Assembly (NCBI GenBank): GCA_043719045.1
Contig: JAYSUN010000433.1
Coordinates: 1 to 34,622, forward strand
Length of the DNA: 34,622 nt
Reading direction: 5' to 3'
Source: Hyphomicrobiaceae bacterium
GTDB lineage: Bacteria > Pseudomonadota > Alphaproteobacteria > Rhizobiales > Hyphomicrobiaceae
Part shown: positions 4,181 through 28,389 of the stretch, piece after piece
Position numbering within the stretch: the stretch's first letter is position 1
Layout: each line of letters opens with the position of its first letter
The notes under the pieces: generated by a model
The model's database searches: none
Told to the model about the DNA's origin: nothing
The model's input: only the letters and a program-made list of their open reading frames with translations
Made by a program: the position numbers and the translations under genes

Positions 4181-4293
4181 TCCATATCGCGATGGCGCCC
4201 AAAAGCCACAGCTTGGGAGCCAAAGTCGCTGGCTGGGCGCCGCAGCATCGGTTCGGGCTTGGCCAACACCGGCGATGCACCTACTATTACTTC

Positions 4294-4866
4294 ATGAAAT
4301 TATTGAGACATTTGGTCCAGGCGGGAACCGCCCTGGTCGGATTAGCGGCTTTGCCAGCCCAAGCTGTGGCCCAACCGCCCGAGCCCTTTGTCCGCGAAAT
4401 CAAACTTGGCATTTTGGCCCACGACGTCCCGGAGATCTGGAGCGGGTTCCGGCGAGAGCGCGGCATCGACATCAACGCCGAAGTCATCTTGTCGCCGTCG
4501 TTGGCATTTCTTGGCGGGCATTTCCGACCAGCTGTTGGCGGCTCACTGAACCTTCAAAACGGTGGTTTCGACCGTGGCACATCCAAGGTCTATGCCGATG
4601 TCCGCTGGATGTATGAGGCCAGCAATGGGTTGTTTATCGGGCTCGGCATCGGGGCTGCTTGGCACAACGGCTTGCTCGATCCCGTCGACCCCGCGCGCAA
4701 GGCGCTTGGCCGCCGCGTGCTGTTCCACTTCCCGTTGGAAATCGGGTACCGCTTGGACGCGCACAACAGCCTTTCGCTGTATTTTGACCACATCTCAAAC
4801 GCCTACACCAAACCGTCGAACGAGGGGCTCGACACCCTTGGCGTCCGCTACGGCTACAAATTCTGA
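4294..4866 (+). CDS. Acyloxyacyl hydrolase / lipid A 3-O-deacylase (PagL-like) outer-membrane protein
   Basis: Start reset to MKLLRHLVQAGTALVGLAALPAQAVA, a Sec signal peptide. The product is beta-barrel-like with a C-terminal aromatic residue (YGYKF). It has an HISNA motif resembling the PagL His-x-Ser catalytic pair. Confidence 0.6.
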   Translation: MKLLRHLVQAGTALVGLAALPAQAVAQPPEPFVREIKLGILAHDVPEIWSGFRRERGIDINAEVILSPSLAFLGGHFRPAVGGSLNLQNGGFDRGTSKVYADVRWMYEASNGLFIGLGIGAAWHNGLLDPVDPARKALGRRVLFHFPLEIGYRLDAHNSLSLYFDHISNAYTKPSNEGLDTLGVRYGYKF

Positions 4867-6810: not shown

Positions 6811-7136
6811 GTGTGGCGTCGCGCCTTGGTTGATCGGTGTTCCGGCTCGACTGGTCTCAACCAAGGCGCGATGACCGCCACACTCAGCCAATGATTTTGC
6901 TCGTGGCCCTCATGTCGCGCCAAAATTGAAAGAAGTCGCGGCCATTCAGCAATTTTGGCGCGACGGGCCACGAGTGTGGCGTCGCGCCTTGGTTGATCGG
7001 TGTTCCGGCTCGACTGGTATCAACCAAGGCGCGATGAACGCCACACTCAGCCAATGATTTGCTCGTGGCCCTATTGTCGCGCCAAAATTGAAAGACGTCG
7101 CGGCAATTCAGCAATTTTGGCGCGACGGGCCACGAG
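6811..7136. repeat. Tandem duplication (2 units of about 163 bp, nearly identical) of an intergenic element composed of two long imperfect hairpins
   Basis: Unit 1 is 6811-6973 and unit 2 is 6974-7136. They differ by only a few substitutions and a 1-nt indel. In unit 1, hairpin a is 6811-6883 (GTGTGGCG..GCGCCTTGGTTGA / TCAACCAAGGCGC..CGCCACAC). Hairpin b is 6900-6974 (CTCGTGGCCC..GTCGCGCCAAAATTG / CAATTTTGGCGCGAC..GGGCCACGAG). Confidence 0.9.
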
Positions 7137-7209
7137 TGGTCTGCATCGGCTTATTTCGCTCATGGGCGGTGCCCATGTCCAGCCGTCATTTGTGGACCGG
7201 TGCGAGAGT

Positions 7210-7671: not shown

Positions 7672-8961
7672 ATGCGTCAGTTGTTCTCGTTGATTTCATG
7701 TGCGCTCATCACCGCCTCGATGGCCGGGTGTTCCGTGCTCAGTTCAGACCTGTTGGAATTCAAGCCCGATGGTGGCTGCCAAAGCGGTGCTGGAACCTAC
7801 TATCTGCCGAAGACGCATCTTGGCGTCAAAGTCGAGCGGCTGACGTACGCGAACACCGACATCCAGCACCAGATTACCATCAAGAAGTTGCGCGTGCCGG
7901 ATCGCTATTTCGGCTATTGTCTCGATTATCTATCGCGCTTGACCTCAGACGATATTGTCCACGTCAAGCGCTATTCCAACACGCAGCTTCTTGGTCTCGT
8001 CAGCACCGATGTGGTGGATCAATCGGGTGCGATTCTGCGGACCTTCGTTCGAGCGGTTCTCGGCGGGTTGGCTGGGCGAACGCGTGTGGCTGGCACGGCG
8101 CAAAAAGCGACGGTGTTTGAAGCGGACTATGACCCGTTCGACGTGGTGGCTTCGGCGCAAGTCAACGACGCATTGCGCAAGTTCGGCTTCTGCCTGATGT
8201 TCGAAGGTGACTTTGCCCGCGACGCGCGCAAGATCCAAAGTTATTGCAGCCATCCGACGGCTGCGCCCAAAGCCGTGCCGGAGCCGCCCTACCAGTTGGC
8301 GTATCGCGATCGTTTGTCTGCGGATCGAAAAACGTTGCCGGGTCTGTTCTATCGACCACGTGTGCCGTACAGCTACTATCTGTTCGTGCGCGATGTGCCT
8401 GAGGCGCACAATAGCCCATGGGCACTGCGCGAATCCGCCGTAGTGGACCTCGAGAACATTTCTCCGATCCTGGCCGTGCGTGTCGACCGCGCCTTCTTCG
8501 CGCAACGTAAAACGACGCTGGTGTTCGACGAGGGCGCCTTGAGGAATGTATGCATCTATAAATCCGCCGAACTGGAGGAGGTCGGCAAGGTCGCGCTCGA
8601 TATCGCCAAGAGCATCGTCGCGCTCCCAGCCCAGACGTTCCAGGTCAAGATCGATCAGGTCTCCGGCCAGGAGGCTCTGGCGCGCGCCGAGTTGGCGGCA
8701 TTGAAGGCGCAGCAGAGCTATGACAACGCATTGAACAAAGTCGCCGGCACGCAACCGAACGTTCTCTCGACTGTCAACGATCCTTTCATGGTCAAAACGG
8801 CTCCGCCGACAGCCGAGTCGTTGAAGCTCGAACGGCAGACCGCGGTGCAAGCCGGCGATCTGGCGGCCCTGTGGACGGCGGCCTGTCCCACGGTCTCAAC
8901 CGCCGCTCCGCTGTCTGCGACCAACGCGCCTGGCAATACCATCGGAGGGATCACTCAATGA
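7672..8961 (+). CDS. Lipoprotein of unknown family (paralog A)
   Basis: Start set at MRQLFSLISCALITASMAGC (lipobox MAG-C), with GGAG 7 nt upstream. It is clearly paralogous to the next gene, sharing GTYYL.K.HL.V.VER, YCLDY, DPF....NDALR..GFCL, SYC.HP, YRPRV and EN.SP..AV..DRAFFA.RKTT..FD.G.LR. I recognise no characterised domain. Confidence 0.8.
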   Translation: MRQLFSLISCALITASMAGCSVLSSDLLEFKPDGGCQSGAGTYYLPKTHLGVKVERLTYANTDIQHQITIKKLRVPDRYFGYCLDYLSRLTSDDIVHVKRYSNTQLLGLVSTDVVDQSGAILRTFVRAVLGGLAGRTRVAGTAQKATVFEADYDPFDVVASAQVNDALRKFGFCLMFEGDFARDARKIQSYCSHPTAAPKAVPEPPYQLAYRDRLSADRKTLPGLFYRPRVPYSYYLFVRDVPEAHNSPWALRESAVVDLENISPILAVRVDRAFFAQRKTTLVFDEGALRNVCIYKSAELEEVGKVALDIAKSIVALPAQTFQVKIDQVSGQEALARAELAALKAQQSYDNALNKVAGTQPNVLSTVNDPFMVKTAPPTAESLKLERQTAVQAGDLAALWTAACPTVSTAAPLSATNAPGNTIGGITQ

Positions 8962-10454
8962 TCGGCTCCACCACAACACCCAAGCGCGTCACCGCCGCAG
9001 CCGGCTGCATTGCCGCCGGCATCATCGTCGCTGCCTGCTCAATGGCTGAGTCTCTGCATATCAGTCCGATCGGCAATCACACCTGCGTCAGCCAGGGCGG
9101 CACGTATTACCTGTCCAAGTCCCACCTCAAGGTTATCGTTGAGCGCGTGGCCAGCGTGGCCGCCGACGGCAAGACGGCAGGGCCGGAGAGCTACTCGCTG
9201 ACTGGTGTCACGGCAGAAGCAAAGCCGGACCGCGCTCAGCTGTATTGCTTAGACTACAATAGCTCGCCGACCGCCAATGACACGCTGCTGATTTCGAAGA
9301 CGCCGGCCAACCTCTTGCAGACGATCACATCAAACGCCGACGATCGATCGGCCCAGATTGCTGAAGATCTCATCAAGGCCGTGTTTGTTTCAATATCGCA
9401 GAATCCCGGATTTGACCGGACACTCAGCACGCGCGCTGCACGGCGCCTGCCACCGACCGGCGTCAGTCACTTGAATCTGTCATTCGATCCATTCGAGGAT
9501 GCTCAAGTCGACGTCACCAACGATGCGTTGCGCCACACCGGCTTCTGTCTCAAGTTGGAGCGACCAGACTCCGGGCCGCGCGACATCAACAGCTATTGTG
9601 ACCATCCGTTGGGCCATGACGGCCGCGAGGCAAGTCTGCGCGAGACAGCCGAGACGCTCGGACGCTACGATCCGCCTGTGATCAACGGTCCGCTCGGCGC
9701 CAATCCGTCACGGGCACGCGGCGCGGATGGACCGATGAGCCGCGCCCCACGAGCCATGACCAAGGCCAATGCGCCGGTGTTGACACAGGGCATTCTCTAT
9801 CGCCCGCGCGTCGCGCATTCGCTATTGCTGTTCGTCAAGCGCGATCTCAAGGCTCGCGGTGGATGGGAATTGCGCAGCCGCGCCACCGTGCTGCTGGAGA
9901 ACGTGTCACCGACCATTGCAGTTGGCATTGATCGGGCATTCTTTGCCAAGCGCAAGACGACGATCACTTTCGATGACGGCGTGCTGCGCGATATCGAGAT
10001 CGAGAAAGGCAGCGAGTTGCTGGGCTTTGCCAATATCCCGCTTGTCATCGCTCAAAGCATAACGGCGTTGCCAGCGAATATCATTCAAGTCCGTCTCCAG
10101 GAGACCAATAACCGCGCCCGGTTGATCGATGCGCAGGAAAAGTTGCTGAAGTCCAAACGCGATCTGGCCGAATTGCAGGGCAAGATCACGCCGGCGACCG
10201 GCCCACTGACACGCAGTGGCAATCCGTTCAACTCCACACGATCCGCCGGCGATGTGGTCGAGGAGCGTATCGGGCAGGGCGGCAATGAAGGTGGTGACCA
10301 AGCTGGGTTTAGCGGTTGCGTCACGCAATGCACCAAACCCGGCGACAGAAGTGCTCAGGTCTGTCGCAACTTCTGCAGTTGCAAAGCCAGTTGCACTGCG
10401 CAAGCGAGCAATAACGATGCGTGCAATCTATACTGCACCCAGAGCGCCAATTGA
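8958..10454 (+). CDS. Lipoprotein of unknown family (paralog B) with a Cys-rich C-terminal tail
   Basis: Start set at MIGSTTTPKRVTAAAGCIAAGIIVAAC (lipobox VAA-C). The ATG at 8958-8960 overlaps the TGA of paralog A (ATGA), and GGAGGGA lies upstream. The conserved blocks are the same as in paralog A. The last 49 aa contain 9 Cys. Confidence 0.8.
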   Translation: MIGSTTTPKRVTAAAGCIAAGIIVAACSMAESLHISPIGNHTCVSQGGTYYLSKSHLKVIVERVASVAADGKTAGPESYSLTGVTAEAKPDRAQLYCLDYNSSPTANDTLLISKTPANLLQTITSNADDRSAQIAEDLIKAVFVSISQNPGFDRTLSTRAARRLPPTGVSHLNLSFDPFEDAQVDVTNDALRHTGFCLKLERPDSGPRDINSYCDHPLGHDGREASLRETAETLGRYDPPVINGPLGANPSRARGADGPMSRAPRAMTKANAPVLTQGILYRPRVAHSLLLFVKRDLKARGGWELRSRATVLLENVSPTIAVGIDRAFFAKRKTTITFDDGVLRDIEIEKGSELLGFANIPLVIAQSITALPANIIQVRLQETNNRARLIDAQEKLLKSKRDLAELQGKITPATGPLTRSGNPFNSTRSAGDVVEERIGQGGNEGGDQAGFSGCVTQCTKPGDRSAQVCRNFCSCKASCTAQASNNDACNLYCTQSAN

Positions 10455-10477
10455 GAGTAGGCGGGGAAGGCGCGACC

Positions 10478-11728
10478 ATGATGAGCTCCACGCCGCGCAA
10501 CTCGGTACATAAGCGCTACGCGATGTTACTCGCGGCTGTGGCCCATGTCGTGGCGCCGACGGCAATGGCGCAAAGTGACTTGCAGGGTGCTGCGCGCTTT
10601 CTGCCGAGCGGTGATGTCCAGCGCGCGATCGAGCGGCAACGCAGCTTTCTGACCAGTGTCGACCGCCTGAATACCCCGCGTGGCGATCGATCAAGCACGA
10701 CGATCCTCCGATCGGCACTATCGGAGGTTGCACCACTGACGGGGCCGGGCGGGCGAGATCTCGGATCGCCACGCGACGTGAGCAAAGTGGCTATTGCCCC
10801 GCAGATCCATGACGATAACCCGAGGGTTGCCAAAACCCTGCGCAGGTATCTGGAAGAGGCGCGCCTTGGAGTGCGCGTGCTCGGCGGTGCCCAGGCGCCG
10901 CACGGTGTGTTTCGCGAAACGGTGGCAATCCATCCACGCGGTGATCAGTCAAGCGTCTGCAGCGGCGTACTGATTGATCGCAATGCTGTGTTGACGGCTG
11001 CGCACTGTGTTTGTGACTTGAAGCTGAACAAGCCGGATACCGAAGCTTTCGTGCGGATCGGCGATGACGTCGCAGAAGCTGCAACGAGGGCTCTTCGCGT
11101 GCTGCCGGAGCGCACGCGCATGCGCGACGAGCGCTTTTGCCAGAAGGCTGGTGCCGCGGGTTTTGTGCCAGGCGTCGATATTGCCGTGGTGTTCTTTCGC
11201 GAAGATCGGGCGGCTGTTCGGGTGGACTTGGGCGGCCCCTACATTATTCCGCGCGAGCGCTGGACCGATGAAAACGGCGCGCTGCGCGTGTCAACAGCGC
11301 GTATCGCGGGCTCAGATGTTTACCTCAGTGCGAGCACAGTGGGGCTTATGGTGGTCGGCTTTGGTACCAACGATACCTCGACCGTGGCCGATCTCGGCCT
11401 CAAGATGTTTGCCGAAATCCCGATTGCATCGCAAATTTGCGGCTCTGCAGCAGCAGAGCAGCAAGCCGGGTGCGCACCGGGGCGCGAAGCGATTTTGATC
11501 GATTGGAAATACCACCAGCGTGACACCTGCAACGGCGACAGCGGCGGCCCGGCGTTTGTCGTCGACGGATCGCAGTATTATCTGGCAGCAATTACATCGC
11601 GATCCGTGACGAAAAGCGGCGGATGCGGGGCTGGCGGGATCTATAGCCTCGCGACGCCCGCGGTAGTTGATTGGTTGCGTTCGGTTGTCCGCGTTGATCC
11701 CATTGTCGTCCGACGCAGGGGGCAATAG
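10478..11728 (+). CDS. Secreted trypsin-like serine protease (S1 family) with a long N-terminal pro-region
   Basis: Signal peptide MLLAAVAHVVAPTAMAQ. All three catalytic-triad contexts are present: LTAAHC (His), DIAVVFF (Asp), CNGDSGGP (Ser). A VLGG motif preceded by Arg sits at residues 133-137. GGGAAGG RBS before ATG 10478. Confidence 0.85.
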   Translation: MMSSTPRNSVHKRYAMLLAAVAHVVAPTAMAQSDLQGAARFLPSGDVQRAIERQRSFLTSVDRLNTPRGDRSSTTILRSALSEVAPLTGPGGRDLGSPRDVSKVAIAPQIHDDNPRVAKTLRRYLEEARLGVRVLGGAQAPHGVFRETVAIHPRGDQSSVCSGVLIDRNAVLTAAHCVCDLKLNKPDTEAFVRIGDDVAEAATRALRVLPERTRMRDERFCQKAGAAGFVPGVDIAVVFFREDRAAVRVDLGGPYIIPRERWTDENGALRVSTARIAGSDVYLSASTVGLMVVGFGTNDTSTVADLGLKMFAEIPIASQICGSAAAEQQAGCAPGREAILIDWKYHQRDTCNGDSGGPAFVVDGSQYYLAAITSRSVTKSGGCGAGGIYSLATPAVVDWLRSVVRVDPIVVRRRGQ

Positions 11729-11767
11729 AGTAGCCCTAGATTTGTTTTATTTCCTATAGGTGCTGTG

Positions 11768-13690
11768 ATGCGGTTATTGCAAACCTGTACATTGTCATTG
11801 TTCGTTACGCTGCTCGCGGCCGGCAGTGCGGTGGCCGCCTGTCTATCACTTGAAGATCAGGCGTTCGGCTGCATGGCACCGGGATGCGCGCAAGCCAGTT
11901 ATCTCAAGAACGGCAAGAAAGCGACACATGTCGCACTGATCTTTGGCAACAATGTCTACCAGGGTGACAGTCCCTTTGTCCCGGCACTGAAACAAGCCGA
12001 AGTCGATGCGCGCGAAATGACGGCGCGTCTGGAGGGTCAAGGCTTCCTCGTGCGCTGCGTCTTGAACGCCAGCGCGTTCCAGGCCCGGCGCGAAGTGCAG
12101 GATCTGGCCGAGCATTTGAGCGAACTTCAGCTCGATCATGTTGCCGTGCCGCGCGAGGCCGCCGTGCCCGCGGTGATCTACTTCGCCGGTCATGGCATGC
12201 GCTACAAGGATGCCAACTACCTGTTGTTTTCCGGCGTGTTTCCACAGCTCCGGTACCGGCAAGAGCTGCTGCCCTTCGCCAACTCCGTGGATGATTTGTT
12301 GCATCCGTTGAAAAACTACTCCAAAGCTCACCCCTTTATTATTGTAGACGCCTGCCGTTCAATCATTCCGCTCCCGGATGACCCGAGCATGCCGATGGTG
12401 CGGGGCAACGTGCATAGCGCCAGCCGTACGGATTCCCTGGCTGGGTTCAATAGCGGTTACTACGTTGTCTATTCGACCAGTGAAAACAACGTCGCCTCAG
12501 ATGAGGGGCCGCGCTTCATGAACTACTTTGCCGACGAGTTCGACAGCTGGGGTCGAGATTTCTCGTCTATTGTCACGACGACGCAAACGCTGTTGGAACG
12601 GAACTCGCCGACAAAGCAAACGATCAATGCCTTCTTCAAAACACCACTCGCCGACGCTCAATGGCGATTCACGGACGATCGCGATTGCGACGGTATTCAG
12701 CACATGCTTGCGCATTTCCCTCTGGTCGCCTGCAATGGCAAGTCATCGCGCGAATGTCTGGAGAGATTCGAGCCCAAGCCATGGCAATGCCAAGTCTGGC
12801 GGTCTCAGCAATCCTCCATCACGGCGGCTGCGAGTTGCAGGGCGCGATTGGTTTCTGCGTTCGGCGCGAAGTTTTCAGCGAAGTGCGAGCCAAGCAACGT
12901 AGCTGGTGCCGATTTTCGCATCCAAGACGGCAATCGACAGGTCCGCCTTAGCGGCTTGACGAACCACGAGGTGACGAAAGTTGCGCTCGCCAGCGATCGC
13001 CTCGGCGATTTCGTTCGGCAATCTGAAGTCAAGGCCATGTCGAGGCGCAGTAATCCCGACAAAGCGCTGAACCGGGCAACAGAGTGGAACGATCTGTTGG
13101 TGCGGGTGCCTGCTGGCACCCCAGTGACGGTCCCGTCTCCGACAGCAAGCGGTACCGCGCGAATGGAGCGTGCGCCGGTTGTGATCGAACCCTCACTGTC
13201 GTGTGACACTCATGTCTGTGATCGCAAGGTGCTGTCTTACGAAGTTTTTGAACCAGCCATCGCCGGCATTCCTAGTCTGCCATCCTTGCGGGTCATCGAG
13301 GCTGCAGCCGCCCAGCCGCGCACGGCTGACGATATTGTCGTGTTGCGCTTTGAGGGGCGGGCTGTGACCGCGCGCGGGGAAGATCTTGCGGGACTGACGC
13401 AGATGGTCGGTCAATACGTGGCGATGTCTGGAACGCGGATTCGAGTGACGGGAGGATTCCCCGGGCCGGCTGGCACGACGGTTGAGGCGCAGAAAGACTA
13501 CGAGCGCGGCATCACGCGGGCCATTTCGCGGAGCTTGAAGATTGGCGACCAGATTGCGCTGATGGGATTGCCGAACAGCTTTGACGCCGCCAGCCGGTTG
13601 AGCGCGGGTGAATTCACTCTGGTTGAGCAACCGGCAACCGGTGTCGAACCTGTCTTTGTCGAATTCTATCGTCCTGCCGTCAAACCGTGA
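11768..13690 (+). CDS. Exported caspase-like (peptidase C14) protein with a C-terminal extension of about 340 aa of unknown function
   Basis: Signal/lipobox-like N-terminus LLAAGSAVAAC. Caspase p20 hallmarks are HVALIFGNNVY, the His context IYFAGHG and the Cys context IIVDACRS. The extension (12665-13687) has several Cys and no domain I can name. Confidence 0.8.
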   Translation: MRLLQTCTLSLFVTLLAAGSAVAACLSLEDQAFGCMAPGCAQASYLKNGKKATHVALIFGNNVYQGDSPFVPALKQAEVDAREMTARLEGQGFLVRCVLNASAFQARREVQDLAEHLSELQLDHVAVPREAAVPAVIYFAGHGMRYKDANYLLFSGVFPQLRYRQELLPFANSVDDLLHPLKNYSKAHPFIIVDACRSIIPLPDDPSMPMVRGNVHSASRTDSLAGFNSGYYVVYSTSENNVASDEGPRFMNYFADEFDSWGRDFSSIVTTTQTLLERNSPTKQTINAFFKTPLADAQWRFTDDRDCDGIQHMLAHFPLVACNGKSSRECLERFEPKPWQCQVWRSQQSSITAAASCRARLVSAFGAKFSAKCEPSNVAGADFRIQDGNRQVRLSGLTNHEVTKVALASDRLGDFVRQSEVKAMSRRSNPDKALNRATEWNDLLVRVPAGTPVTVPSPTASGTARMERAPVVIEPSLSCDTHVCDRKVLSYEVFEPAIAGIPSLPSLRVIEAAAAQPRTADDIVVLRFEGRAVTARGEDLAGLTQMVGQYVAMSGTRIRVTGGFPGPAGTTVEAQKDYERGITRAISRSLKIGDQIALMGLPNSFDAASRLSAGEFTLVEQPATGVEPVFVEFYRPAVKP

Positions 13691-13762
13691 CATGCCGATC
13701 ATTACCACACGATATGCGGATGTCGTGACGTGCAAAGCCGCTCTTATCGAGACGAGGCACAT

Positions 13763-15805
13763 ATGTCTAACCTCCATCACCTGCTTCGGCGCATTGGACG
13801 CGGCACCGCTGCGACGGTTGCGATGTTTGCCGTCATCAGTACCTGCGGTGCGACTTTTGCCTCGATGCCAGGTCAAGGGCCAAGCGAGCTCCTCGAAAGT
13901 GAGTATCTCTCGGCTTACGTTCAGGCCTACGGCAAGGATGCCAAGAAGGTGGCGCTGGTCATCGGCAATGGCCGGTACGCGCATCTGAGCCCGCTGCAGA
14001 ATTCGCCGAGGGACGCGCAACTCGTCACCAAGCAACTCAAGCTGCTGAATTTTGACGTTACGATGGTGGTTGACGCTGACGTCGCGCAAATGCGGCGCGC
14101 GCTGGTAGATTTTGCGCCCAAGTCTTCGGCGGCCGACGTGGCACTGTTTTTCTATGCCGGCCACGCGATCGAGGCGAACGGTCAGAATTTGATGTTCGGT
14201 ATTGATGCAAGACTTGAGGGTGGCAATGCTGACAACGCTGAGTCTCTGACGCAGATGGCCCTGTCGGCGCAGAGCTTGCTCAGCGTGCTCGAACAAAGCG
14301 CCCCGATCCGGATCGTGATTCTGGACGCCTGCCGGGACAACCCGCTGGAAGCCAACAAGACGCCTTCACCGCCGTCCGGCAGCGGTTCACGACAAACCAT
14401 GCCCGCGACCGCCAACGACCGCGGCGTCGTGCCGGTCAAGAAGGGCCTCGCCGCCATGCGCGGTCGGTCCGGTACGTACATCGCCTATGCGGCCGAGCCG
14501 GGCAAAGTCGCCCTCGACGGTCAGGGTGAAAACAGTCCGTTCTCGACGGCAATCGCCAAGCACTTGCCGAAAGTCGGATTGACCGTCGAGCAGATTTTCA
14601 ATGAGGTCCGCCGCGATGTTTACCTGTCGACCTCGGGCATGCAATTGCCGTGGTCGGAGTCAGCCCTGCTCGGCAGTCTGTTCCTCCAGGCGCCGCCTGT
14701 TGCAATCACCAACGTCTTACCGGCCGCATTGGTTCCGGCCGAGCAGCGCGCGCACGTCAAAGATGGCGAGCTTGCGAAACTGGTCGGCGATCAGACATTC
14801 CAGATCTCAGGCCAGTTGCGCGCCGAGGCACGGCTGAATGGCGACATCATTGCGTTCGCGAACGGTGCTGAAAGCGAAGACGTGCTGAGGCGTGGAGTGA
14901 ATTACATCACCATGGGCGATAAGACCGTACCAGCATGGTACGAGCGCAAGCAGCTTGTGTTGTTCCCTCGAGCCTACCAGAAAAGCTATGCTATCGTCGC
15001 GGCCGTTGGTCGTTACAAAGAACCGGCAAAGAGCCGCTTTGAAGATCTGCCATTCATGGTCGACCAAGCAAAGAAGTTGGCCGATGTTTTGGTCGATCTC
15101 GGCTTTCCTGCCGAGAACATCGTTCGTCTTTATGATGGCGACGTGACTTCTGGCCGCCTTGAACAGGAACTGCGGCGCTTTTGGCCCGGTGGTGATCGAA
15201 GCGATGCTGATCGACTGCTGTTCTATTTCGGCGGCCATGGTGGCGATGTTGATATTCCGAACTACATGACGTTTGCCAAAGACCAGAAATCGAAGCGCGG
15301 GCTGCTGATCACACACGACCACGATCCGGCGCGACCGCTGGCAACCAGCTTTCTCCTCGATGACATCATTCAACGGCATTTCGCTTTTCTGGCGCCGCGG
15401 CACGTATTGTTTCTGATCGATTCCTGCTCATCCGGTTTGGCCATGCCAAGGACTGCGGACGGCAGTGATACGGACCGCGAAACAATCCGCCGGTATCAGT
15501 TGCTGGCGCTGCTCGACAGTGAATTGAAAAGCCACGCGCGCAATATGCTGGTTGCAAGCTCCGGCGATGCCAAGGCACTATATCAGAATGGGGGGCTGTT
15601 CACCAAGAAGCTGCTCGAAGGCATCGAGACTCGCGCGGCTGACATCAATGGCGATGGGCTGATTCAGTTTGCCGAACTCGAGATCTTCGTCTCGAACCTC
15701 GTCAAGGTGGAATCCAAGGCACTCGGACTTGAGCAGAGCCCGTCGCCGTTTCGAGTGGGTTCGAATTTCGTGTTCGTCTTGCCACCGACCAAGCCTGCCC
15801 ACTGA
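13763..15805 (+). CDS. Exported protein with two tandem caspase-like (C14) domains
   Basis: Start at MSNLHHLLRRIGRGTAATVAMFAVISTCGATFA (signal peptide). Domain 1 (about 13946-14659) has VALVIGNGRY, FFYAGHA and IVILDACRDNP. Domain 2 (about 14981-15739) has YAIVAAVGRY, LFYFGGHG and FLIDSCSSG, plus the EF-hand-like loop DINGDGLIQFAEL. Confidence 0.8.
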   Translation: MSNLHHLLRRIGRGTAATVAMFAVISTCGATFASMPGQGPSELLESEYLSAYVQAYGKDAKKVALVIGNGRYAHLSPLQNSPRDAQLVTKQLKLLNFDVTMVVDADVAQMRRALVDFAPKSSAADVALFFYAGHAIEANGQNLMFGIDARLEGGNADNAESLTQMALSAQSLLSVLEQSAPIRIVILDACRDNPLEANKTPSPPSGSGSRQTMPATANDRGVVPVKKGLAAMRGRSGTYIAYAAEPGKVALDGQGENSPFSTAIAKHLPKVGLTVEQIFNEVRRDVYLSTSGMQLPWSESALLGSLFLQAPPVAITNVLPAALVPAEQRAHVKDGELAKLVGDQTFQISGQLRAEARLNGDIIAFANGAESEDVLRRGVNYITMGDKTVPAWYERKQLVLFPRAYQKSYAIVAAVGRYKEPAKSRFEDLPFMVDQAKKLADVLVDLGFPAENIVRLYDGDVTSGRLEQELRRFWPGGDRSDADRLLFYFGGHGGDVDIPNYMTFAKDQKSKRGLLITHDHDPARPLATSFLLDDIIQRHFAFLAPRHVLFLIDSCSSGLAMPRTADGSDTDRETIRRYQLLALLDSELKSHARNMLVASSGDAKALYQNGGLFTKKLLEGIETRAADINGDGLIQFAELEIFVSNLVKVESKALGLEQSPSPFRVGSNFVFVLPPTKPAH

Positions 15806-15960: not shown

Positions 15961-16194
15961 TCAGAACTGTTTCGGTTCGGGATGACTTCGATGTGGCGCG
16001 GCATAGGTGAAAGGTTCCGTCAGCCGCCATCGTAGGTCTGGCTTGGCGCGGTCGTCGTTCTTATGTCCCAACGAGAAGGCTTCATGTACTGCGCGGCAAA
16101 GAGGCGAACATCGTGACCACAGGTGAAACGTCGTCTTGCCGATATCGATGCCGATGACTGTGACCTCGACCTTCGATTTCTGTTGGGATGACAT
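15961..16194 (-). mobile_element. Degraded IS110-family transposase remnant (N-terminal fragment only)
   Basis: MSSQQKSKVEVTVIGIDIGKTTFHLW matches the conserved IS110/DEDD transposase N-terminus (V.GIDIGK..FH.). An AAGGAG RBS lies upstream. The reading frame then degenerates (..LGHKNDDRA.. may echo the KND..DA block), and most of the roughly 340-aa enzyme is absent. Confidence 0.5.
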
Positions 16195-16238
16195 CGTGTG
16201 CTCCTTCAGGCTTGATATCTCTCCCTGACCAGAGCGGA

Positions 16239-17717
16239 TTAATCCAAAGGGAAGATCGGCCGAGGGACGTTCTTGTAGGGGAGCTTTTTGAGGTCGGGCG
16301 TGCACAGCGCACCACTGTCGCAAACGATGATTTCGTCGGCGATTGACGCGAATGCTGCGCGGAAATGCTGCATCGATTTCAGTGCCACGACGGATTTCTT
16401 TGCCGGATCGATGCCGAATGCCTTGAACTGCTGCTGATCGTAGATCTGGGATCGATTCGTGACCACCAGGATTTCAATCCCGCCAACCGCAAGCACCGCC
16501 GTCGGCCCCCAGCTGCGCGCGAGGCCGCCGATCATGGGGCCATCGCCCACGTAGTCGCCGTGACTCAACAATTTGAGTATGCCCGTCACATTCAGCGGGC
16601 CGCCGCCAATCCTGGGATCGGTCTTACCACCGAGGGCAAGCGTTACGGTTTCACCGGGTTTATGACGATCAAGGTGTGCGACTGCATCGGCGTCGACGAT
16701 TGGACCAAAGCACGCGTTCTCGACGTCGGCCGCCAGCAGTGCGCGGAGCAGCGCCGTGCCGTCACCATAGGCGCCGCCGCCCGGATTGTCGGCGTAGTCC
16801 GCGATGACGATCGGCCCAGCGCGGGGATTGTACCGTTTGGCCTGTGCGGCAGCCTCTTCCACAGACAGGAATGTGTTGATCGTCTCGAAGCGCTTTGCCC
16901 AGATGTCGTCTGCGATTGCGTCGGCAAATGCCTGATGGGCAGCAAAGTCGCCCTGGCCGGTCACGAGGACTGTCGGGCCGACCTGAGCAATATCGGCGTT
17001 GCCGAAACCGCCGTTGATACTGACGGCGAAAACATCGGGCTGCCGCTCATAGGCACGCGCCTTGACCATCCGCTCGATCATGGGGCCAGCGTCGGTACGC
17101 CCGCCGTTGACTTCCTCGAGCATGGGCCTGCTAACGCGAATTGTGCGCGGCTTGATTTCGCCCAGCAGTGTTCGCTGCAGGATCTCGGCCGCCTGCCGCG
17201 CGCTGTCGCGCATGTCGACGTGCGGGTAGGTCTTGTAACTGACGATGATATCGGCCAGGGCGCACATCTCGACGGTGACGTTTGCATGTGGGTCAAGCGT
17301 GATACCGATCGGCACACTTGGGCCAACGACCGCGCGTAACCGTGCAAGCAACTCGCCTTCGCCGTCCTGGCAGAAGTCCGTGACCATTGCGCCGTGCAAG
17401 CCAAGCAGGATGCCATCCAGACTGCCGCCGGCCTCACGTGCTCTGGCGATGATCATGCCCGCGATACGGTCGAAGGCATCGCGCGTCACCGGGCCACCGG
17501 GTTGCGCCGCTGCACTCACGGCATGGACCGTCTGCCAGCCATGTCGGCGAGCTACATCAAGAAAGCCGGCGATATCCGTGTTGGCATCGCCGCGCTGCGC
17601 GATGGCGTCGTCACCCGCGAAGCAACCGCGACCCAGGAACGCTGCAAAATTCGTCGGTTGGATGCTGAAGGTGTTCGTCTCGTGCGCGAACTCGGCAGTC
17701 AAAACCTTGAATGGCAT
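16239..17717 (-). CDS. M81 family metallopeptidase (MlrC-like, DUF1485 plus MlrC_C)
   Basis: The N-terminus MPFKVLTAEFAHETNTFS and the LGLHGAMV and GITLDPHAN motifs are characteristic of MlrC-like proteins. It is the last gene of the peptide ABC operon. Confidence 0.85.
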   Translation of the reverse strand: MPFKVLTAEFAHETNTFSIQPTNFAAFLGRGCFAGDDAIAQRGDANTDIAGFLDVARRHGWQTVHAVSAAAQPGGPVTRDAFDRIAGMIIARAREAGGSLDGILLGLHGAMVTDFCQDGEGELLARLRAVVGPSVPIGITLDPHANVTVEMCALADIIVSYKTYPHVDMRDSARQAAEILQRTLLGEIKPRTIRVSRPMLEEVNGGRTDAGPMIERMVKARAYERQPDVFAVSINGGFGNADIAQVGPTVLVTGQGDFAAHQAFADAIADDIWAKRFETINTFLSVEEAAAQAKRYNPRAGPIVIADYADNPGGGAYGDGTALLRALLAADVENACFGPIVDADAVAHLDRHKPGETVTLALGGKTDPRIGGGPLNVTGILKLLSHGDYVGDGPMIGGLARSWGPTAVLAVGGIEILVVTNRSQIYDQQQFKAFGIDPAKKSVVALKSMQHFRAAFASIADEIIVCDSGALCTPDLKKLPYKNVPRPIFPLD

Positions 17718-17732
17718 CGCGTCCTCCGGCCT

Positions 17733-18710
17733 TCAGCTGATGGGATGGTGACAGGCGATCTGATGCCCGCGGCCAGCATCCGACAAGACCGGCCGCTCAG
17801 TCTTGCAGCGTGCCGTCGCACCGCCACACCGCGCCGCGAACGCGCATCCCGGTATGGCCACGAACGGGCTCGGGATTTCACCGGACATGCGGGTCACGAT
17901 CTTGCGTTGGCGCGGATCAGGCTCAAAAGTGCTGTCCATCAGCGTGCGCGAATAGTGATGCCGTGGTTCCGCTGTCGCATGCGGCAGAATCTCGACAATT
18001 CGGCCGAGATACATAACGACGATACGGTCGCAGAAATAGCGCACCAGACTGAGGTCATGCGAGATGAAGAGATAGGTGAGACCGAACTCGCTCTTGAGCG
18101 CTTCGAGCAGGCCGATGATCTGCGCCTGGATCGACACGTCGAGGGACGCGGTTGGCTCATCAAGCACCAGAAAAGCCGGTCTCAAGGCAAGTGCACGCGC
18201 AATGCCCACGCGCTGCCGCTGACCGCCGGAGAGTTGATGCGGATAGCTGTCGGCCATGCGCGGGCTCAATCCCACCTTGGCGATCAACTCATCGACGATG
18301 GTACCGGCCGTCGCGGCATCGAGCGGCACGCCCTGCACTTGGAACGGCTCCAACAGTGCGCGACGGATCGTGTAGCGCGGGTCCACCGCCGAATACGGAT
18401 CTTGGAAAACCATCTGCATGCGTCGCCGCAACCCTCGTAAGGCCGCGGGCCGCAATTTCCCAAGATCAATGCCATCGAACGTGACGGTTCCGGCGCTCGC
18501 ATCGAGCAAGCGCAGGACCAATCGCGCGAGCGTGGATTTACCGCAGCCGGATTCACCGACGACGCCCGTAACTTTGGCACGCGGCACGTCAAGGGAGACA
18601 TCGTTGACGGCGCGCATCGTGCGCGGCTGCGCGAACAGTCCGCTGCGGCTACTGAAATCGCGCGTCAGTCCGCGAACGGTGACGAGGTTGTCGGACGCGG
18701 ACTGGTTCAT
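17733..18710 (-). CDS. Peptide/nickel ABC transporter ATP-binding protein (DppF/OppF type)
   Basis: Walker A GESGCGKST, signature LSGGQRQR, Walker B LVLDEPTASLD and the C-terminal oligopeptide-ATPase Cys motif are present. Start set at MNQSASDNL, giving an ATGA overlap with the upstream ATPase gene. Confidence 0.9.
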   Translation of the reverse strand: MNQSASDNLVTVRGLTRDFSSRSGLFAQPRTMRAVNDVSLDVPRAKVTGVVGESGCGKSTLARLVLRLLDASAGTVTFDGIDLGKLRPAALRGLRRRMQMVFQDPYSAVDPRYTIRRALLEPFQVQGVPLDAATAGTIVDELIAKVGLSPRMADSYPHQLSGGQRQRVGIARALALRPAFLVLDEPTASLDVSIQAQIIGLLEALKSEFGLTYLFISHDLSLVRYFCDRIVVMYLGRIVEILPHATAEPRHHYSRTLMDSTFEPDPRQRKIVTRMSGEIPSPFVAIPGCAFAARCGGATARCKTERPVLSDAGRGHQIACHHPIS

Positions 18711-19663
18711 GCCGCAACCTCCGCGAAATGGCACGCGGCGATGCCTGAAGCCCGTTGCGCGAGAGGCGGCACGTCGCTCTGGCAGACCGGCTGAGCCTTG
18801 GCGCATCGCGGATGAAAGCGGCAGCCCTGTGGATAGTCCATCACGCTCGGCACGGTGCCGGGAATGCCGTTGAGGCTGCCTGGCACTTGCCCGTGACGTG
18901 GAATGCAGCGGATCAGTTCGCGGGTGTAGGGATGCTTCGGCGCAGCAAAGATTGCATCGACCGTGTTGCTCTCCGCGACGCGGCCCGCATAAAGCACCAC
19001 CACACGGTCACAGGCCTGCGCGACGACCCCCATGTCGTGCGTGATCAGCATTAGCGCCAGGCCGCGTTCACGGACGAGTTCCACCATGATTTGGATGATC
19101 TGCGCCTGGATGGTGACATCGAGCGCGGTCGTCGGCTCGTCGGCAATGATGAGGTCCGGGTCGGCTGCCAGCGCCATGGCGATGACGATGCGCTGCTTCA
19201 TGCCACCCGACAGCTGGTGAGCGTAGTTGGCATGTATCGCCGCCGCCTCTGGAATGCGCAATTGCTGCATCAACGCGACGCTGCGTGCTTTCGCCGCCGG
19301 TTCGGTAAGGCCGAGGTGCAGCCTTGAAACCTGATCTATCTGCTCGCCAACACGAACAATCGGATCAAGCGACGTCATGGGGTTCTGGCTGATCAACGCG
19401 ATGCGCTTGCCGCGCAGCCGGCGATAATCGGTCTCGCGCAGGCCAACCAGCTCGGTGCCGTCGAAATTGATCGAGCCACTCGTCACCTTGGCGCCAATCA
19501 GAGGCAGCAACCCCATGATGCTCAGGGCGGTCAGCGACTTGCCGGAGCCAGATTCGCCGACGACGCCGAGAATTTCCTTGCGGTCGAGATCGAACGAAAT
19601 GTTGTCCAGCGGATCGAGTTTACCGACTGAGACGCAGACGTTGTGAACAGAAAGCAGTGCCAT
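18707..19663 (-). CDS. Peptide/nickel ABC transporter ATP-binding protein (DppD/OppD type)
   Basis: Walker A GESGSGKS, signature LSGGMKQR and Walker B IIADEPTTALD. Start set at MALLSVHNV, just after the stop of the permease gene. Confidence 0.9.
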   Translation of the reverse strand: MALLSVHNVCVSVGKLDPLDNISFDLDRKEILGVVGESGSGKSLTALSIMGLLPLIGAKVTSGSINFDGTELVGLRETDYRRLRGKRIALISQNPMTSLDPIVRVGEQIDQVSRLHLGLTEPAAKARSVALMQQLRIPEAAAIHANYAHQLSGGMKQRIVIAMALAADPDLIIADEPTTALDVTIQAQIIQIMVELVRERGLALMLITHDMGVVAQACDRVVVLYAGRVAESNTVDAIFAAPKHPYTRELIRCIPRHGQVPGSLNGIPGTVPSVMDYPQGCRFHPRCAKAQPVCQSDVPPLAQRASGIAACHFAEVAA

Positions 19664-19664
19664 G

Positions 19665-20540
19665 CTACGCATCCCGCAGACGGTTGCGGATGTCGAGCGC
19701 ATCGATCACGGCATCACCAAAAAGGTTGATCGCGATGACAGTCATGGCAATGACGAGGCCTGGGAACACGATGATCCAAGGCGCGATGAAAATCTGCGCC
19801 GTGCCGCTGCTCATCATGCCGCCCCAGCTTGGGGTCGGTGGCTGCGCGCCAAGGCCAAAGAACCCAAGTGTCGCTTCGAGGATGATCGCGTTGCCAGTTG
19901 CCAGCATGCCCGCGACGATCACAGTCGGCAGCGCGTTGGGGAGCAGATGACGAAAAATGATGTGGAAGTGACCGGCGCCGAGATTGGTCGTCGCTTCGAT
20001 GTAGGTCTCGGTCTTCAGAGCCATGACTTGCGCCCGCGTCAACCGCGTGAACTGCGCGAGATAGGCGATGCTGATTGCGATCATCGTGCTGTTGAGGCCG
20101 GGGCCAATGATAGCGATCAGGATGAGCGCGATCAAAATCTCGGGAAACGACCACGTGAGATCGACCACAGCCGTGACGATGCGATCGAACGGACCGCCAA
20201 AGTAACCAGCCGCCGCGCCGAGGCTCATGCCGATCGCAACCGAGATCGCGATTGCCGTGATCGCAACCGAAAGCGATGTGCGGGCCCCATAGATGATGCG
20301 GGAGAAGAGATCCCGGCCAAACTCGTCGGTGCCCATCCAGTGTGACCACGATGGGTCCTTGTTGGCTGAGGGCAGGTTCTGAATGTCGAACGGATAGGGG
20401 GCAATCAATGGCGCGAAGATCGCGGCAGCAACGATCAACCCAAGGACCAGCGCGGACAGGCCGCCGCGTGGTGTCAGGACGATCTTGCCCAAGGTGGAAT
20501 TGCCAAAGGTGCCAGTTGCGAAGGTCGCGTTCGCTGTCAT
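19665..20540 (-). CDS. ABC transporter permease (DppC/OppC type)
   Basis: Start set at MTANATF... (ATG 20538-20540), 2 nt after the upstream permease stop. LGTDEFGRDLFSRIIYGARTSL is the typical DppC motif. The track ORF 19665..20750 carries a spurious extension. Confidence 0.9.
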   Translation of the reverse strand: MTANATFATGTFGNSTLGKIVLTPRGGLSALVLGLIVAAAIFAPLIAPYPFDIQNLPSANKDPSWSHWMGTDEFGRDLFSRIIYGARTSLSVAITAIAISVAIGMSLGAAAGYFGGPFDRIVTAVVDLTWSFPEILIALILIAIIGPGLNSTMIAISIAYLAQFTRLTRAQVMALKTETYIEATTNLGAGHFHIIFRHLLPNALPTVIVAGMLATGNAIILEATLGFFGLGAQPPTPSWGGMMSSGTAQIFIAPWIIVFPGLVIAMTVIAINLFGDAVIDALDIRNRLRDA

Positions 20541-20542
20541 GG

Positions 20543-21469
20543 TTACGCTGCTCCCTGACGCACACGTGGATCCATCGCGGCCTGCACAATGTCGCCGAGC
20601 AGCGTGCCGAGCATGACAGCGATGGCGAGCATCAACAGGCAGCCCTGCACCACCGGATAGTCCCGCTGATTGAGCGATGTGATCAGCAGCGAGCCCAGTC
20701 CCGGCCGGGCAAAGACGTATTCGATCGTCACCGCGCCGCCCAAAATCCAACCTATCCGCAGGCTCAGGATCGTCACGACGGGCAGCATGGCGTGCCGGAG
20801 GTTATGGCACAGCTCGATGCGCCAGCGCGATACGCCCTTGGCATGCAACATCAGCACGAAGTCCTTGCGCGCGATGTCGAGCATTGCGACACGCGTCACG
20901 CGGGCGACAAGTGCGATGCCACCGAGGCCGATCGTCAGGACCGGCAGCACCAGTGCACTCCAGGTCCTGGCACCAGAAACCGGAAACCAGCCCAATTGAA
21001 CCGCGAACAACAGGATCAGGAGCAGGCCGAGCCAGAAGCTCGGCACGGTCGAGCCGAGCAGGATCAGCGTCATCACGCCGCGATCGATCCAGGTGTCCTT
21101 GAAGATCGCCGCCAAAGCGCCGGTCGCGATCCCGACCACGGTTGAAAACAGTAACGCGAGTGTCCCGAGAATGAGGCTGTGCGGCAAGTTTTGGGCGATC
21201 AGCTCCGCAACCGGCCGGCGCAAAATGATGGCGTCACCAAGATCCCCGCGCACAAGTTTACCGAGCCAGATGCCGTATTGAAGGATCACGGGCTTATCGA
21301 GCCCATAACGGGCGGTGAGTTCCGCCCGCTGTTCTTGCGTCGATCCGACCTGCACGAGGCTGTCGATCGGATCGCCCGGCACAAGATGGATGATCGCGAA
21401 GATAATCATCGAAACGGCCAGAAACACCGGAATGAGCAACACCAACCGTTTGAAGATGAAGTTGAGCAT
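20543..21469 (-). CDS. ABC transporter permease (DppB/OppB type)
   Basis: The MLNFIFKRLVLLIPVFLAVSMIIFAIIHLVPGDP N-terminus is typical of DppB/OppB. Confidence 0.9.
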   Translation of the reverse strand: MLNFIFKRLVLLIPVFLAVSMIIFAIIHLVPGDPIDSLVQVGSTQEQRAELTARYGLDKPVILQYGIWLGKLVRGDLGDAIILRRPVAELIAQNLPHSLILGTLALLFSTVVGIATGALAAIFKDTWIDRGVMTLILLGSTVPSFWLGLLLILLFAVQLGWFPVSGARTWSALVLPVLTIGLGGIALVARVTRVAMLDIARKDFVLMLHAKGVSRWRIELCHNLRHAMLPVVTILSLRIGWILGGAVTIEYVFARPGLGSLLITSLNQRDYPVVQGCLLMLAIAVMLGTLLGDIVQAAMDPRVRQGAA

Positions 21470-21509
21470 CCGGGGTCTCGTTGATCCGATCAGTGGGTCT
21501 CGGCAGCGC

Positions 21510-23102
21510 TCACTTCTTCACGTCGATGTCGACAATCGTCTGGCCCTGTAGACGCGTGCCGCGGATCACGTTGGGAACGGTGACACGTGCCTCACTGTAG
21601 GCAAAACTCTGCACCGGCTGATAGATCGGAGCGAACACGAACTGCGAGAGCACATACTCATGATAGGTTTTGAAGTTGGCGACCCGTTCGTCCCAGGTGC
21701 GCGAGCCTTTCATGGCCTTCAGGTTCAATTCCTCAGCCTTCGCATCATTCCACATGGAGTGGTTCGGATGGCCGAGGCGCTTGCCGCTGAAGAACCAGTC
21801 GAGGATGTCTGAGTTGCCCCAGGAATAGCTCCGCACCGCCAACTGATGTTCGGTCTTCTTCCGGTACTGCGCCGTGATTGTGGCTGCGTCGAAGATGGTG
21901 ATGTCGGCGCCGATGCCGACGGCCTTCAGCTGCGCTTGCACGACTTCAGTAACCCGTTTGAACTCAGTGCCGTTCTGGGTCCATAGCTTGACCTGGAGAG
22001 GCACGCCGCCCTTGGCGCGAACACCGCCCGCGCCGAGCACCCAACCGGCGTCATCGAGAAGTTTCTTTGATCGCGCGGGATCAAAGCTGATGTTGAACTT
22101 TGGATCGATCTTGGATTCCAGCAGCGAGCTGATCAGAAAATTATTGGCAACCGCACCAATGCCGCCAAACAGGTTCTGCAGGATTTCCGGCTGATTGATC
22201 GCAAATGCCGTCGCCTCGCGTACCTTGATATCATCGAACGGCGCGACTGACGTGTTCATCGGCATGTAGAACACTTCGGTGCCAGCAAGCGTGATCACCT
22301 TCATGCCCTTCTCGGCTTGCAGTCGCGGCAGGAAATCGGTGGGCACCGAAAGCAGCATGTCGACGCCGCCGGTCTTGAGTTCGAGAAAGGCGGTCGAATC
22401 CTCGGCGATCTCGCGCAGCGTCAGTTTCTGGATTTTGGCTGGACCCTGGTTCGCTGACAGCTTCGATGCCGAGTTGTAGGCGTCATTCCGGACCAGCACA
22501 GTTTGCTGACCGACGACAAAGCTCTCCAGTTTGAAAGGGCCCGTGCCGACCGCGCCAGTGACTCCGTACTTGTCGCCGAGCGCGTCGAAGGCCTTGGGTG
22601 ACGGAATGCCCATGAACGTCGATGCCATGTTGAACAACATGTTCGGATCGGGGTTCTTCATCACGAACTTCACTGTCAGGTCGTCGACAATCTCGACCTT
22701 CTCGATGGCATCCGTCATGAAAGCATTCTCGGTCCCTTTGAACTTCGGTACCCACCACTCAATGGTCTTGGCGTTGAAGGGCTCACCGTCGTGAAACTTC
22801 ACGTTCGGGCGCAGCTTGAACGTCCACGACATGCCGTCGGGTGAAGACTCCCACGAAGTCGCAAGCTGGCCATGGAAGCTCTGGTCCGCGTCTTGGATGA
22901 CCATGCGGTCATAGATGAAGGTATTGCCAGCGTTGAGGCGTGTGGCCTTGATCGGGTTATAGCTCGGCGCCCCAACTTCGCGTGCCGACAGCACGAACGT
23001 TGCCTCCTGGGCGACCGCCGCGGTCGGAACACCAGCAGTCAGAATGGCGGCCGACAGGATCGCCGATCTGGTTAGACGTGTCGCCTTTGGTAGATGACGC
23101 AT
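21510..23102 (-). CDS. ABC transporter substrate-binding protein, family 5 (peptide/opine/nickel)
   Basis: Signal peptide ...AILTAGVPTAAVAQE. Size is 530 aa with SBP_bac_5-like content (WTFKLRPNVKFHDGEPFNA). Confidence 0.9.
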   Translation of the reverse strand: MRHLPKATRLTRSAILSAAILTAGVPTAAVAQEATFVLSAREVGAPSYNPIKATRLNAGNTFIYDRMVIQDADQSFHGQLATSWESSPDGMSWTFKLRPNVKFHDGEPFNAKTIEWWVPKFKGTENAFMTDAIEKVEIVDDLTVKFVMKNPDPNMLFNMASTFMGIPSPKAFDALGDKYGVTGAVGTGPFKLESFVVGQQTVLVRNDAYNSASKLSANQGPAKIQKLTLREIAEDSTAFLELKTGGVDMLLSVPTDFLPRLQAEKGMKVITLAGTEVFYMPMNTSVAPFDDIKVREATAFAINQPEILQNLFGGIGAVANNFLISSLLESKIDPKFNISFDPARSKKLLDDAGWVLGAGGVRAKGGVPLQVKLWTQNGTEFKRVTEVVQAQLKAVGIGADITIFDAATITAQYRKKTEHQLAVRSYSWGNSDILDWFFSGKRLGHPNHSMWNDAKAEELNLKAMKGSRTWDERVANFKTYHEYVLSQFVFAPIYQPVQSFAYSEARVTVPNVIRGTRLQGQTIVDIDVKK

Positions 23103-28249: not shown

Positions 28250-28262
28250 GCTGAAGCCTCCT

Positions 28263-28308: not shown

Positions 28309-28389
28309 GGACGCGTCGCACGTGCGCCGAACCTGTTTGTGCGGCGGTGATGATCGCCACTTTGGGCGCACGCATGGTCGCAGAAATCA

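Follow-up and report, generated by a model that had tools for sequence, protein, structure and literature searches.

The stretch of DNA analysed here (the window) is a contig of 34,622 nucleotides (nt) from a Hyphomicrobiaceae bacterium, and all positions for it refer to the window as a whole. Between positions 7672 and 15805, it carries an operon of five genes, all on the + strand, which we call A to E. Gene A (7672..8961), preceded by a GGAG ribosome-binding site, encodes a predicted lipoprotein of 429 amino acids (aa) from an unnamed family (A-type), and gene B (8958..10454), which overlaps A through an ATGA, encodes its 498-aa paralog (B-type). A 23-nt spacer separates B from gene C (10478..11728), the product of which is an exported protease of the S1A trypsin fold (416 aa). 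Gene D (11768..13690) follows after 39 nt and encodes an exported caspase-like protein of the C14 family, 640 aa long from its ATG; a GTG lies at 11765. Gene E (13763..15805), 72 nt downstream of D, encodes an exported protein of 680 aa with two C14 domains. The initial annotation of this locus had described five same-strand genes with this overlap and these spacers, and their open reading frames (ORFs) and starts were found exactly as it gave them. It had also read them as a set of exported proteases encoded together with two novel lipoproteins. This interpretation is, overall, supported: genes of the set recur together elsewhere, the lipoproteins match no characterised family, and the export signals hold.

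Proteins A and B share 32% identity (E=4e-48) and are, therefore, paralogs. The signal peptide of A ends in the lipobox MAGC, with Cys20 as the lipidation site (7672..7731, + strand), as also seen in the family alignment, while B carries the lipobox VAAC, with Cys27 at nt 9036-9038 (+ strand) within gene B. Both were compared with the bacterial lipoprotein pattern [LVI][ASTVI][GAS]C and scored as agreeing with it, and lipidation is predicted for the two proteins, which are probably anchored to the outer membrane. Of the 146 family sequences in the alignment, 134 have the lipobox Cys, and the remaining 12 have N-terminal gaps or are incomplete. L[AS][AG]C is the usual form of the family lipobox, and just four of these 134 sequences have Asp at position +2. 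In the mature proteins, Cys36, Cys83, Cys174 and Cys192 are invariant across the family, a fifth Cys is nearly so, and the C-terminal tail of B is Cys-rich. The number of mature-protein cysteines is even in all 146 members, which is a signature of disulfide-bonded extracytoplasmic proteins. The conservation of the lipobox Cys, the invariant cysteines, the even cysteine counts and the presence of signal peptides on the S1, C14 and X proteins of all loci strongly support export.

The description of these two lipoproteins as members of no recognised family stands. Neither A nor B had a single match in Pfam, NCBIfam, PADLOC or PHROGs, and a PDB sequence-profile search retrieved nothing. A word-indexed search returned only 25 relatives, and a second one, using the 146-sequence profile, added almost none. 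An exhaustive profile search retrieved 2,348 representative clusters at E≤1e-3, 369 of them at E≤1e-30. Ten sampled members had no Pfam domain, and any that carry names are called 'hypothetical protein'. Protein A was modelled twice with AlphaFold2, with predicted local distance difference test (pLDDT) values of 67 and 78; the latter model (predicted template modelling score, 0.68) was built on the 146-sequence alignment. The predicted structure has a beta-rich core with two very long strands (residues 42-59 and 63-86) and a long helix of approximately 58 residues (300-357; 8569..8742, + strand) in which Pro319 is invariant; behind this helix lies a disordered tail that contains the conserved Cys405 (nt 8884-8886, + strand). 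Foldseek searches of the PDB and BFVD with both models gave no match at E≤0.001. The best scores were E=0.028 and 0.04 in the PDB and E=0.005 in BFVD, with probabilities of at most 0.13 and TM-scores of about 0.1. A and B, as judged by these comparisons, are a new family with no known fold or sequence match to a characterised family.

Several candidate identities for A and B were considered and rejected. A gasdermin identity was dismissed because Pfam and PDB fold matches are absent and because the conserved lipoprotein signal peptide and the even number of mature-protein cysteines speak against a cytoplasmic protein. Neither Pfam nor Foldseek comparisons with the PDB and BFVD gave a significant match to beta-pore-forming toxins (aerolysin, ETX/MTX-2) or MACPF/CDC proteins. 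Likewise, no Pfam/NCBIfam, PDB-profile or fold match pointed to a serpin, ecotin, alpha-2-macroglobulin or tetratricopeptide repeat (TPR) adaptor.

Protein C matches the Pfam Trypsin family (PF00089; E=6.5e-17, 62.5 bits against a cutoff of 20.6) and retains the catalytic triad His176 (TAAHC), Asp234 (VDIAV) and Ser355 (GDSGGP), the equivalent of chymotrypsin Asp102 being assigned by motif only. Its signal peptide ends AMA/Q (residue 31). Asp349, within the motif DTCNGDSGGP, occupies the chymotrypsin-189 position. This Asp189 is shared by 13 out of 13 core S1 orthologs, within the common motif D[TSA]CxGDSGG, and a trypsin-type specificity for Arg/Lys is predicted for these enzymes. The closest solved relatives of C are animal trypsin-like S1A enzymes, and C keeps the S1A disulfide cysteines (Cys42-Cys58 and the Cys191-type). 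Approximately 100 residues, with no Pfam match at E≤1, separate the signal peptide from a zymogen-type junction between Arg133 and Val134 (R133/VLGG, cut after Arg133; 10874..10879, + strand). In alignments, Val134 coincides with the first residue of the mature elastase, enteropeptidase and trypsin chains. Given this pro-region and the alignment of R133/VLGG with mature S1A N-termini, C looks like a zymogen.

Proteins D and E exceed the Peptidase_C14 threshold (PF00656; cutoff 21.4 bits), the former with 64.9 bits (E=1.1e-17) over residues 55-286 only, and the latter with 164.2 bits (E=5.2e-48) over two domains. The dyads His142/Cys196 in D, and His134/Cys190 and His492/Cys555 in E, are intact, so the initial assignment of one S1 and three C14 domains with complete catalytic residues is borne out by Pfam matches and residues alike. 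The N-terminus of D ends either in a lipobox (VAAC, Cys25) or at AVA/A, and the signal peptide of E ends TFA/S. Thus, each of the five products has a lipobox or a signal peptide, in agreement with the earlier claim that all are exported, to which the family-wide cysteine conservation and the signal peptides across loci add. Mature E contains no cysteines besides the two catalytic ones. Its second C14 domain includes a canonical EF-hand calcium-binding loop, DINGDGLIQFAE (15641-15676, + strand; E residues 627-638), with a weak Pfam EF-hand_5 match (E=0.026), a hint that this exported caspase-like protein may be regulated by calcium. The C-terminal ~340 aa of D have no Pfam match at E≤1, and D as a whole has no PDB sequence match. 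The closest solved relative of E is the MALT1 paracaspase, an Arg-specific enzyme. Orthocaspases are described as cutting after basic residues (PMC6426788). Neither protein belongs to the NCBIfam caspase_w_EACC1 subtype by score (E, 92.3 bits; D, 22.8 bits; cutoff, 140 bits), and the operon encodes no EACC1-type transmembrane partner. Searches of PADLOC-DB v2 with C, D and E gave just weak, generic protease-domain matches (LmuA, 1e-5; 'caspase', 3.8e-14) and defined no system.

The co-occurrence of these genes was assessed in 18 distinct loci with sequence available downstream of the lipoprotein genes: the window, L001, L002, L003, L005, L006, L008, L010, L013, L014, L015, L016, L019, L020, L021, L022, L023 and the P0023 contig. 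In the harvest of loci, an alignment-based genome scan contributed five and a metagenome scan four. Tandem A/B paralogs on one strand, directly followed by an S1 gene, were present in 18 out of 18 loci, including L005, in which the S1 gene is decayed through insertion sequences and a frameshift. The loci span Hyphomicrobiaceae, Methyloligellaceae and Rhizobium plasmids, with identities of 24-53%. The second position of the tandem is always taken by the B-type ortholog, and the A-type and B-type proteins represent old orthologous subfamilies in a fixed order. C14 genes were found within the available flank in 11 of the 18 loci, either directly after the S1 gene (window, L002, L013, L019, L020, L023 and P0023 contig) or nearby (L001, L003, L014 and L022). 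The expected co-occurrence thus held in full for A-B-S1 and in part for the C14 component. Since the available sequence of the other seven loci contains no C14 gene, the core cannot depend on caspases. What evolution has kept fixed is the gene trio A-B-S1, and the caspases are an optional layer, often present and with exchangeable domains: the C-terminal parts of module-linked C14 proteins consist of WD40 repeats, an FGE-sulfatase domain, a second C14 domain with an EF-hand (as in E) or unassigned sequence. The S1, C14 and X (see below) proteins of every locus examined begin with a classical signal peptide, usually ending AxA/Q. We are highly confident that this is a real, conserved and exported functional module, with the lipoprotein pair and the S1 protease as its core.

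The hosts are metagenome-assembled genomes of Hyphomicrobiaceae and Methyloligellaceae, along with two cultured rhizobia: Rhizobium leguminosarum WSM1325 (plasmid pR132503, RLEG_RS30150-30175) and Rhizobium johnstonii TP60 (pRlX4). In both rhizobia, the gene order is X-A-B-S1-caspase-S1', where X is a further exported Cys-rich protein, encoded by the first gene of the module in about ten loci. X constitutes a third unnamed family, variable in its N-terminal part and conserved in a Cys-rich domain at the C-terminus, which bears the motif HTCDAT...CGYDPSPQ; its members have no Pfam match at E≤1. X genes were located in L001 (8769-9956), L002 (8628-9905), L003 (8844-9992), L005 (8922-9854), L013 (9204-10004), L019 (8159-8935), L020 (8180-8947) and L016 (909-2282), and tblastn detected no remnant of X in the window.

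The tandem comprises two family members, except in L021 and L022, where there are three. Some third paralogs, namely P0160 (L021, 8001-9593), P0146 and P0159, are 530-570 aa long and match the family profile in two stretches, the best of which covers profile positions 151-384. Their extra sequence is, therefore, apparently N-terminal to that region. A 746-aa fusion of a B-type lipoprotein with an S1 protease (P0092; L014, 5572-8311) was attributed to a frameshift, as an artefact of assembly or gene calling, and not counted as evidence: a signal peptide lies within it, the remainder of its S1 domain is encoded in a different frame, and coverage of the contig is 1.84x.

A feature shared by A and B lies in residues 117-146 of A (8020..8109, + strand), where a conserved amphipathic segment with the consensus DQSxxIxxTLIRTxFxxxSGNP precedes a linker variable in length and sequence. 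The loop ranges from 29 to 48 residues across the family. In A, it is modelled with low confidence at residues 119-141, and pLDDT over the whole region is about 34 in both models. All that is fixed in the linker is one basic position, occupied by Arg in 135 of the 146 sequences and by Lys in five. This near-invariant column corresponds to Arg136 in A (nt 8077-8079, + strand), which we propose as a protease cleavage site, and aligns with Arg159 in B (nt 9432-9434, + strand).

These features lead us to favour, tentatively, a periplasmic switch gated by proteolysis of the lipoproteins, in which variable C14 proteins would be the initiators and the S1 zymogen the executioner, with an output in conflict or defence. 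All parts would be secreted to the periplasm by Sec/Lol, and the S1 enzyme would be made as a proenzyme, in C with a pro-region of ~100 aa ending at R133/VLGG. The C14 proteins, as members of a family cutting after basic residues, would form a variable sensor/initiator layer that switches the S1 protease on; the sensor role is suggested by the variability of the C-terminal regions of the module-linked C14 proteins. Active S1, and possibly the caspases directly, would then cleave both lipoproteins at the near-invariant Arg/Lys, in the flexible loop right behind the conserved amphipathic segment. Cleavage would render the lipoprotein pair active and alter the envelope, e.g. by permeabilising a membrane or by the loss of a periplasm-spanning tether. 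The output may be an abortive-infection-like defence or the exclusion of incoming phage or mobile DNA. Which protease cuts which protein, what cleavage brings about and what the module does for the cell are all inferred.

Several observations weigh against a protease-gated switch. None of the five proteins has a transmembrane-like segment beyond the signal peptide, the amphipathicity of the conserved segment of A and B is only moderate, and the model matched no pore-former or other known effector fold. A basic residue occupies the putative activation junction in only seven of the 13 core S1 orthologs. To these we add the seven loci without a C14 gene, the housekeeping genes flanking the operon in the window (tatABC, the MlrC/M81 peptidase and Dpp-type transporters), the unremarkable composition of the operon, whose GC content is similar to that of the remainder of the window, and a defence association drawn from four or five loci rather than from statistics. 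Finally, the exposed conserved Arg suits a bait or inhibitor loop equally well.

This last point introduces the main rival explanation, possible but somewhat doubtful in our view, that A and B are neither substrates nor effectors but membrane anchors, adaptors, inhibitors or immunity proteins that tether and restrain the S1 and C14 proteases through a bait-like Arg loop. The true targets of the proteases would then be other proteins, such as those of phages or pili that come into the periplasm, enzymes of the cell wall or proteins of competing cells. The strict adjacency of A/B and S1 genes, and an exposed basic residue matched to an Asp189 protease, would also be expected of a bait. Moreover, some periplasmic serine proteases are known to have a lipoprotein of the outer membrane as their partner (NlpI-Prc and LbcA-CtpA), and periplasmic immunity proteins are often lipoproteins. 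However, A and B are large (430-500 aa), highly conserved and always present as two or three paralogs, without a TPR, serpin, ecotin or alpha-2-macroglobulin signature. Their loop is flexible and variable in length, unlike the rigid loops of canonical inhibitors, and no dedicated secretion system for outward delivery recurs among the examined loci.

The genomic context of the module bears on its proposed role in conflict. Outside the window, it is often found in mobile or defence surroundings. The L010 copy is part of an integrative conjugative element (with TraG, relaxase and transposase) and adjoins an MkoC-like helicase gene. L013 adjoins TraG, MobA-type relaxase and PDC-M38A/B (AbiL-like) genes, L020 adjoins HmaB and HmaC, L023 adjoins a VapE-like gene, and the module on the P0023 contig is beside PglZ, BrxL and Cas2. 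L001, L003 and L006, in turn, are set among metabolic genes. The A/B family was found in 2 out of 72,556 plasmids, both from Rhizobium, and in no phage record in DNA and protein searches. The proposed accessory origin, thus, draws its support mainly from the conjugative elements and defence neighbours of other loci, and none from the composition of the window.

The same context was used to weigh a role in envelope housekeeping or development, in which the proteases would process or degrade A and B, or further proteins of the envelope, during ordinary biogenesis of the cell surface or in stress responses, with no part in conflict. The neighbours in the window (PagL, tatABC, MlrC and Dpp transporters), the window-like composition of the operon and the metabolic surroundings of L001, L003 and L006 agree with such a role. 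Nevertheless, we deem it improbable, as the very patchy distribution and the conjugative plasmids, integrative elements and BREX, Hma, Mokosh-like and AbiL-like neighbours are atypical of housekeeping genes, as are the variable accessory protease repertoire and the decay in L005 by insertion sequences and a frameshift.

Nutritional proteolysis, in which external protein would be digested for adjacent peptide transporters and the lipoproteins would be incidental, seems very improbable. It is suggested by the M81/MlrC peptidase and two Dpp/Opp-type ABC systems downstream in the window, by the S53 peptidase that follows the module in Rhizobium WSM1325 and by the S8 peptidases near the modules of L002 and L021. 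However, the transporters lie beyond the operon on the opposite strand and are not conserved neighbours in other loci, and this explanation leaves the obligatory lipoprotein pair and its invariant Arg unaccounted for. Additionally, proteases of the zymogen and caspase types serve regulation and not bulk digestion. Both the housekeeping and the nutritional roles are less likely because they fit poorly with a patchy, mobile-element-linked distribution and an obligatory paralog pair.

Returning to the protease-gated switch, its boldest form, which we regard as unlikely, is a periplasmic counterpart of the caspase/gasdermin death pathway. Exported caspase-like sensors with exchangeable C-terminal domains would detect an envelope event (phage entry, conjugative machinery or damage) and activate the trypsin-type zymogen. 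This would cut the two outer-membrane lipoproteins of new fold, and the cut pair would breach or uncouple the envelope, making defence or exclusion wholly extracytoplasmic and free of an NTPase. Bacterial gasdermin operons encode adjacent caspase-like, trypsin-like or subtilisin-like proteases (PMC9079055, PMC9612521). They share with the module an effector-like protein encoded beside C14, S1 or S8 proteases (WD40-type repeats being fused to some of these), the occurrence in defence islands and activation by a single proteolytic cut, which for the module is a hypothesis. Unlike gasdermins and their proteases, which are cytoplasmic, A and B have lipoprotein signal peptides, conserved disulfide cysteines and 430-500 aa, always form a paralog pair and match gasdermins neither in fold nor in sequence.

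NlpI-Prc and LbcA-CtpA likewise combine a lipoprotein with an exported serine protease in one periplasmic unit. In these systems, S41 proteases and TPR lipoproteins control cell-wall hydrolases, whereas the protease of the module is S1A, its lipoproteins have neither TPR nor any known domain, caspase-like genes are attached and there is no homology. The closest solved relatives of C belong to animal S1A zymogen cascades (enteropeptidase to trypsin, clotting factors and prophenoloxidase-activating enzymes), with which C shares Asp189, the disulfide cysteines and an R/VLGG junction at the activated N-terminus. It differs from them in being bacterial and predicted to be periplasmic, in its unrelated pro-region of ~100 aa and in the basic junction residue, which occurs in some orthologs only.

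D and E are comparable to orthocaspases and metacaspases (PMC3501461, PMC6426788) in passing the Peptidase_C14 threshold with intact dyads, and module-linked relatives show the C14-WD40 and C14-FGE-sulfatase fusions that are common in that group. N-terminal hydrophobic segments, probably signal peptides, were noted on C14 proteins in 2012 without a function (PMC3501461). Unlike described orthocaspases, E combines tandem C14 domains with an EF-hand loop and has catalytic cysteines only, and the C-terminal half of D matches nothing. Trypsin-like and caspase-like proteases, domain shuffling and links to mobile elements or defence are likewise found in NTP-dependent conflict systems, which contain cytoplasmic NTPases and the adaptor domains EAD, Trypco and EACC1 (Kaur et al. 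2020, PMC7159879). In contrast, neither NTPase nor EAD/Trypco/EACC1 domains were detected here, which agrees with the initial remark that the module lacks an NTPase, and the caspase_w_EACC1 match is sub-threshold. No published description of the module was found in the literature searched, and the text of PMC7159879 contains no description of an exported lipoprotein-protease module.

The proteases of the module belong to ordinary families; its lipoprotein family and exported architecture are without a described counterpart. Taken together, the five genes look like an undescribed envelope proteolytic system, insofar as this can be read from sequence. To our knowledge, the caspase-like and trypsin-like proteases of bacteria are at present seen mainly as immune effectors of the cytoplasm, and we know of no function or partner set assigned so far to exported C14 members. 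The module supplies these proteins, noticed for over a decade without a partner, with a fixed genetic partner set, including a family of thousands of clusters that has no entry in Pfam, NCBIfam or the PDB. Another gain is a concrete cleavage hypothesis with named residues in each protein, directly testable because the module is present in cultured R. leguminosarum WSM1325. If the module is indeed a conflict system, cascades of the animal type (zymogen, caspase-like initiator and cleaved executioner) would also exist in the bacterial periplasm, which would become a new compartment for anti-phage and anti-plasmid immunity.

As for the flanks of the operon in the window, the initial annotation had listed tandem repeats, an AT-richer spacer and an IS110 scar. 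The repeats were recovered between tatA and the operon (6811-7138), as two tandem copies of 162-163 bp that are 95-98% identical. The repeat unit forms two long hairpins (folding energy of -94 kcal/mol, z=-9.8) and has no further copies in the window, within which no Rfam family was detected; it looks like an intergenic element of the REP or MITE type. The upstream spacer is AT-richer, albeit modestly (GC of 0.54 versus about 0.59). The IS110 scar downstream of E was not confirmed: the ORF at 15961-16323 (- strand), which holds the MSSQQKSKVEVTVIGIDIGKTTFHL stretch earlier taken for a transposase remnant, has no Pfam match and a single, insignificant tblastn match.

Upstream of the operon, the neighbours are PagL and tatCBA. 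The gene with the PagL domain (lipid A 3-O-deacylase) lies at 4192-4866, a few kb from the module, and another occurs in the same situation on the unrelated contig of L005 (5531-6715), which may be coincidence or residual synteny. Downstream, the neighbours are the M81/MlrC peptidase and Dpp-type peptide ABC transporters. The transporters form two separate Dpp/Opp-type sets (16239-23102 and 26597-33140), one of them with the M81/MlrC-family peptidase ahead of it, and an RpiR-type regulator, an FAD oxidoreductase and a PEP-mutase-family gene are located between the two.

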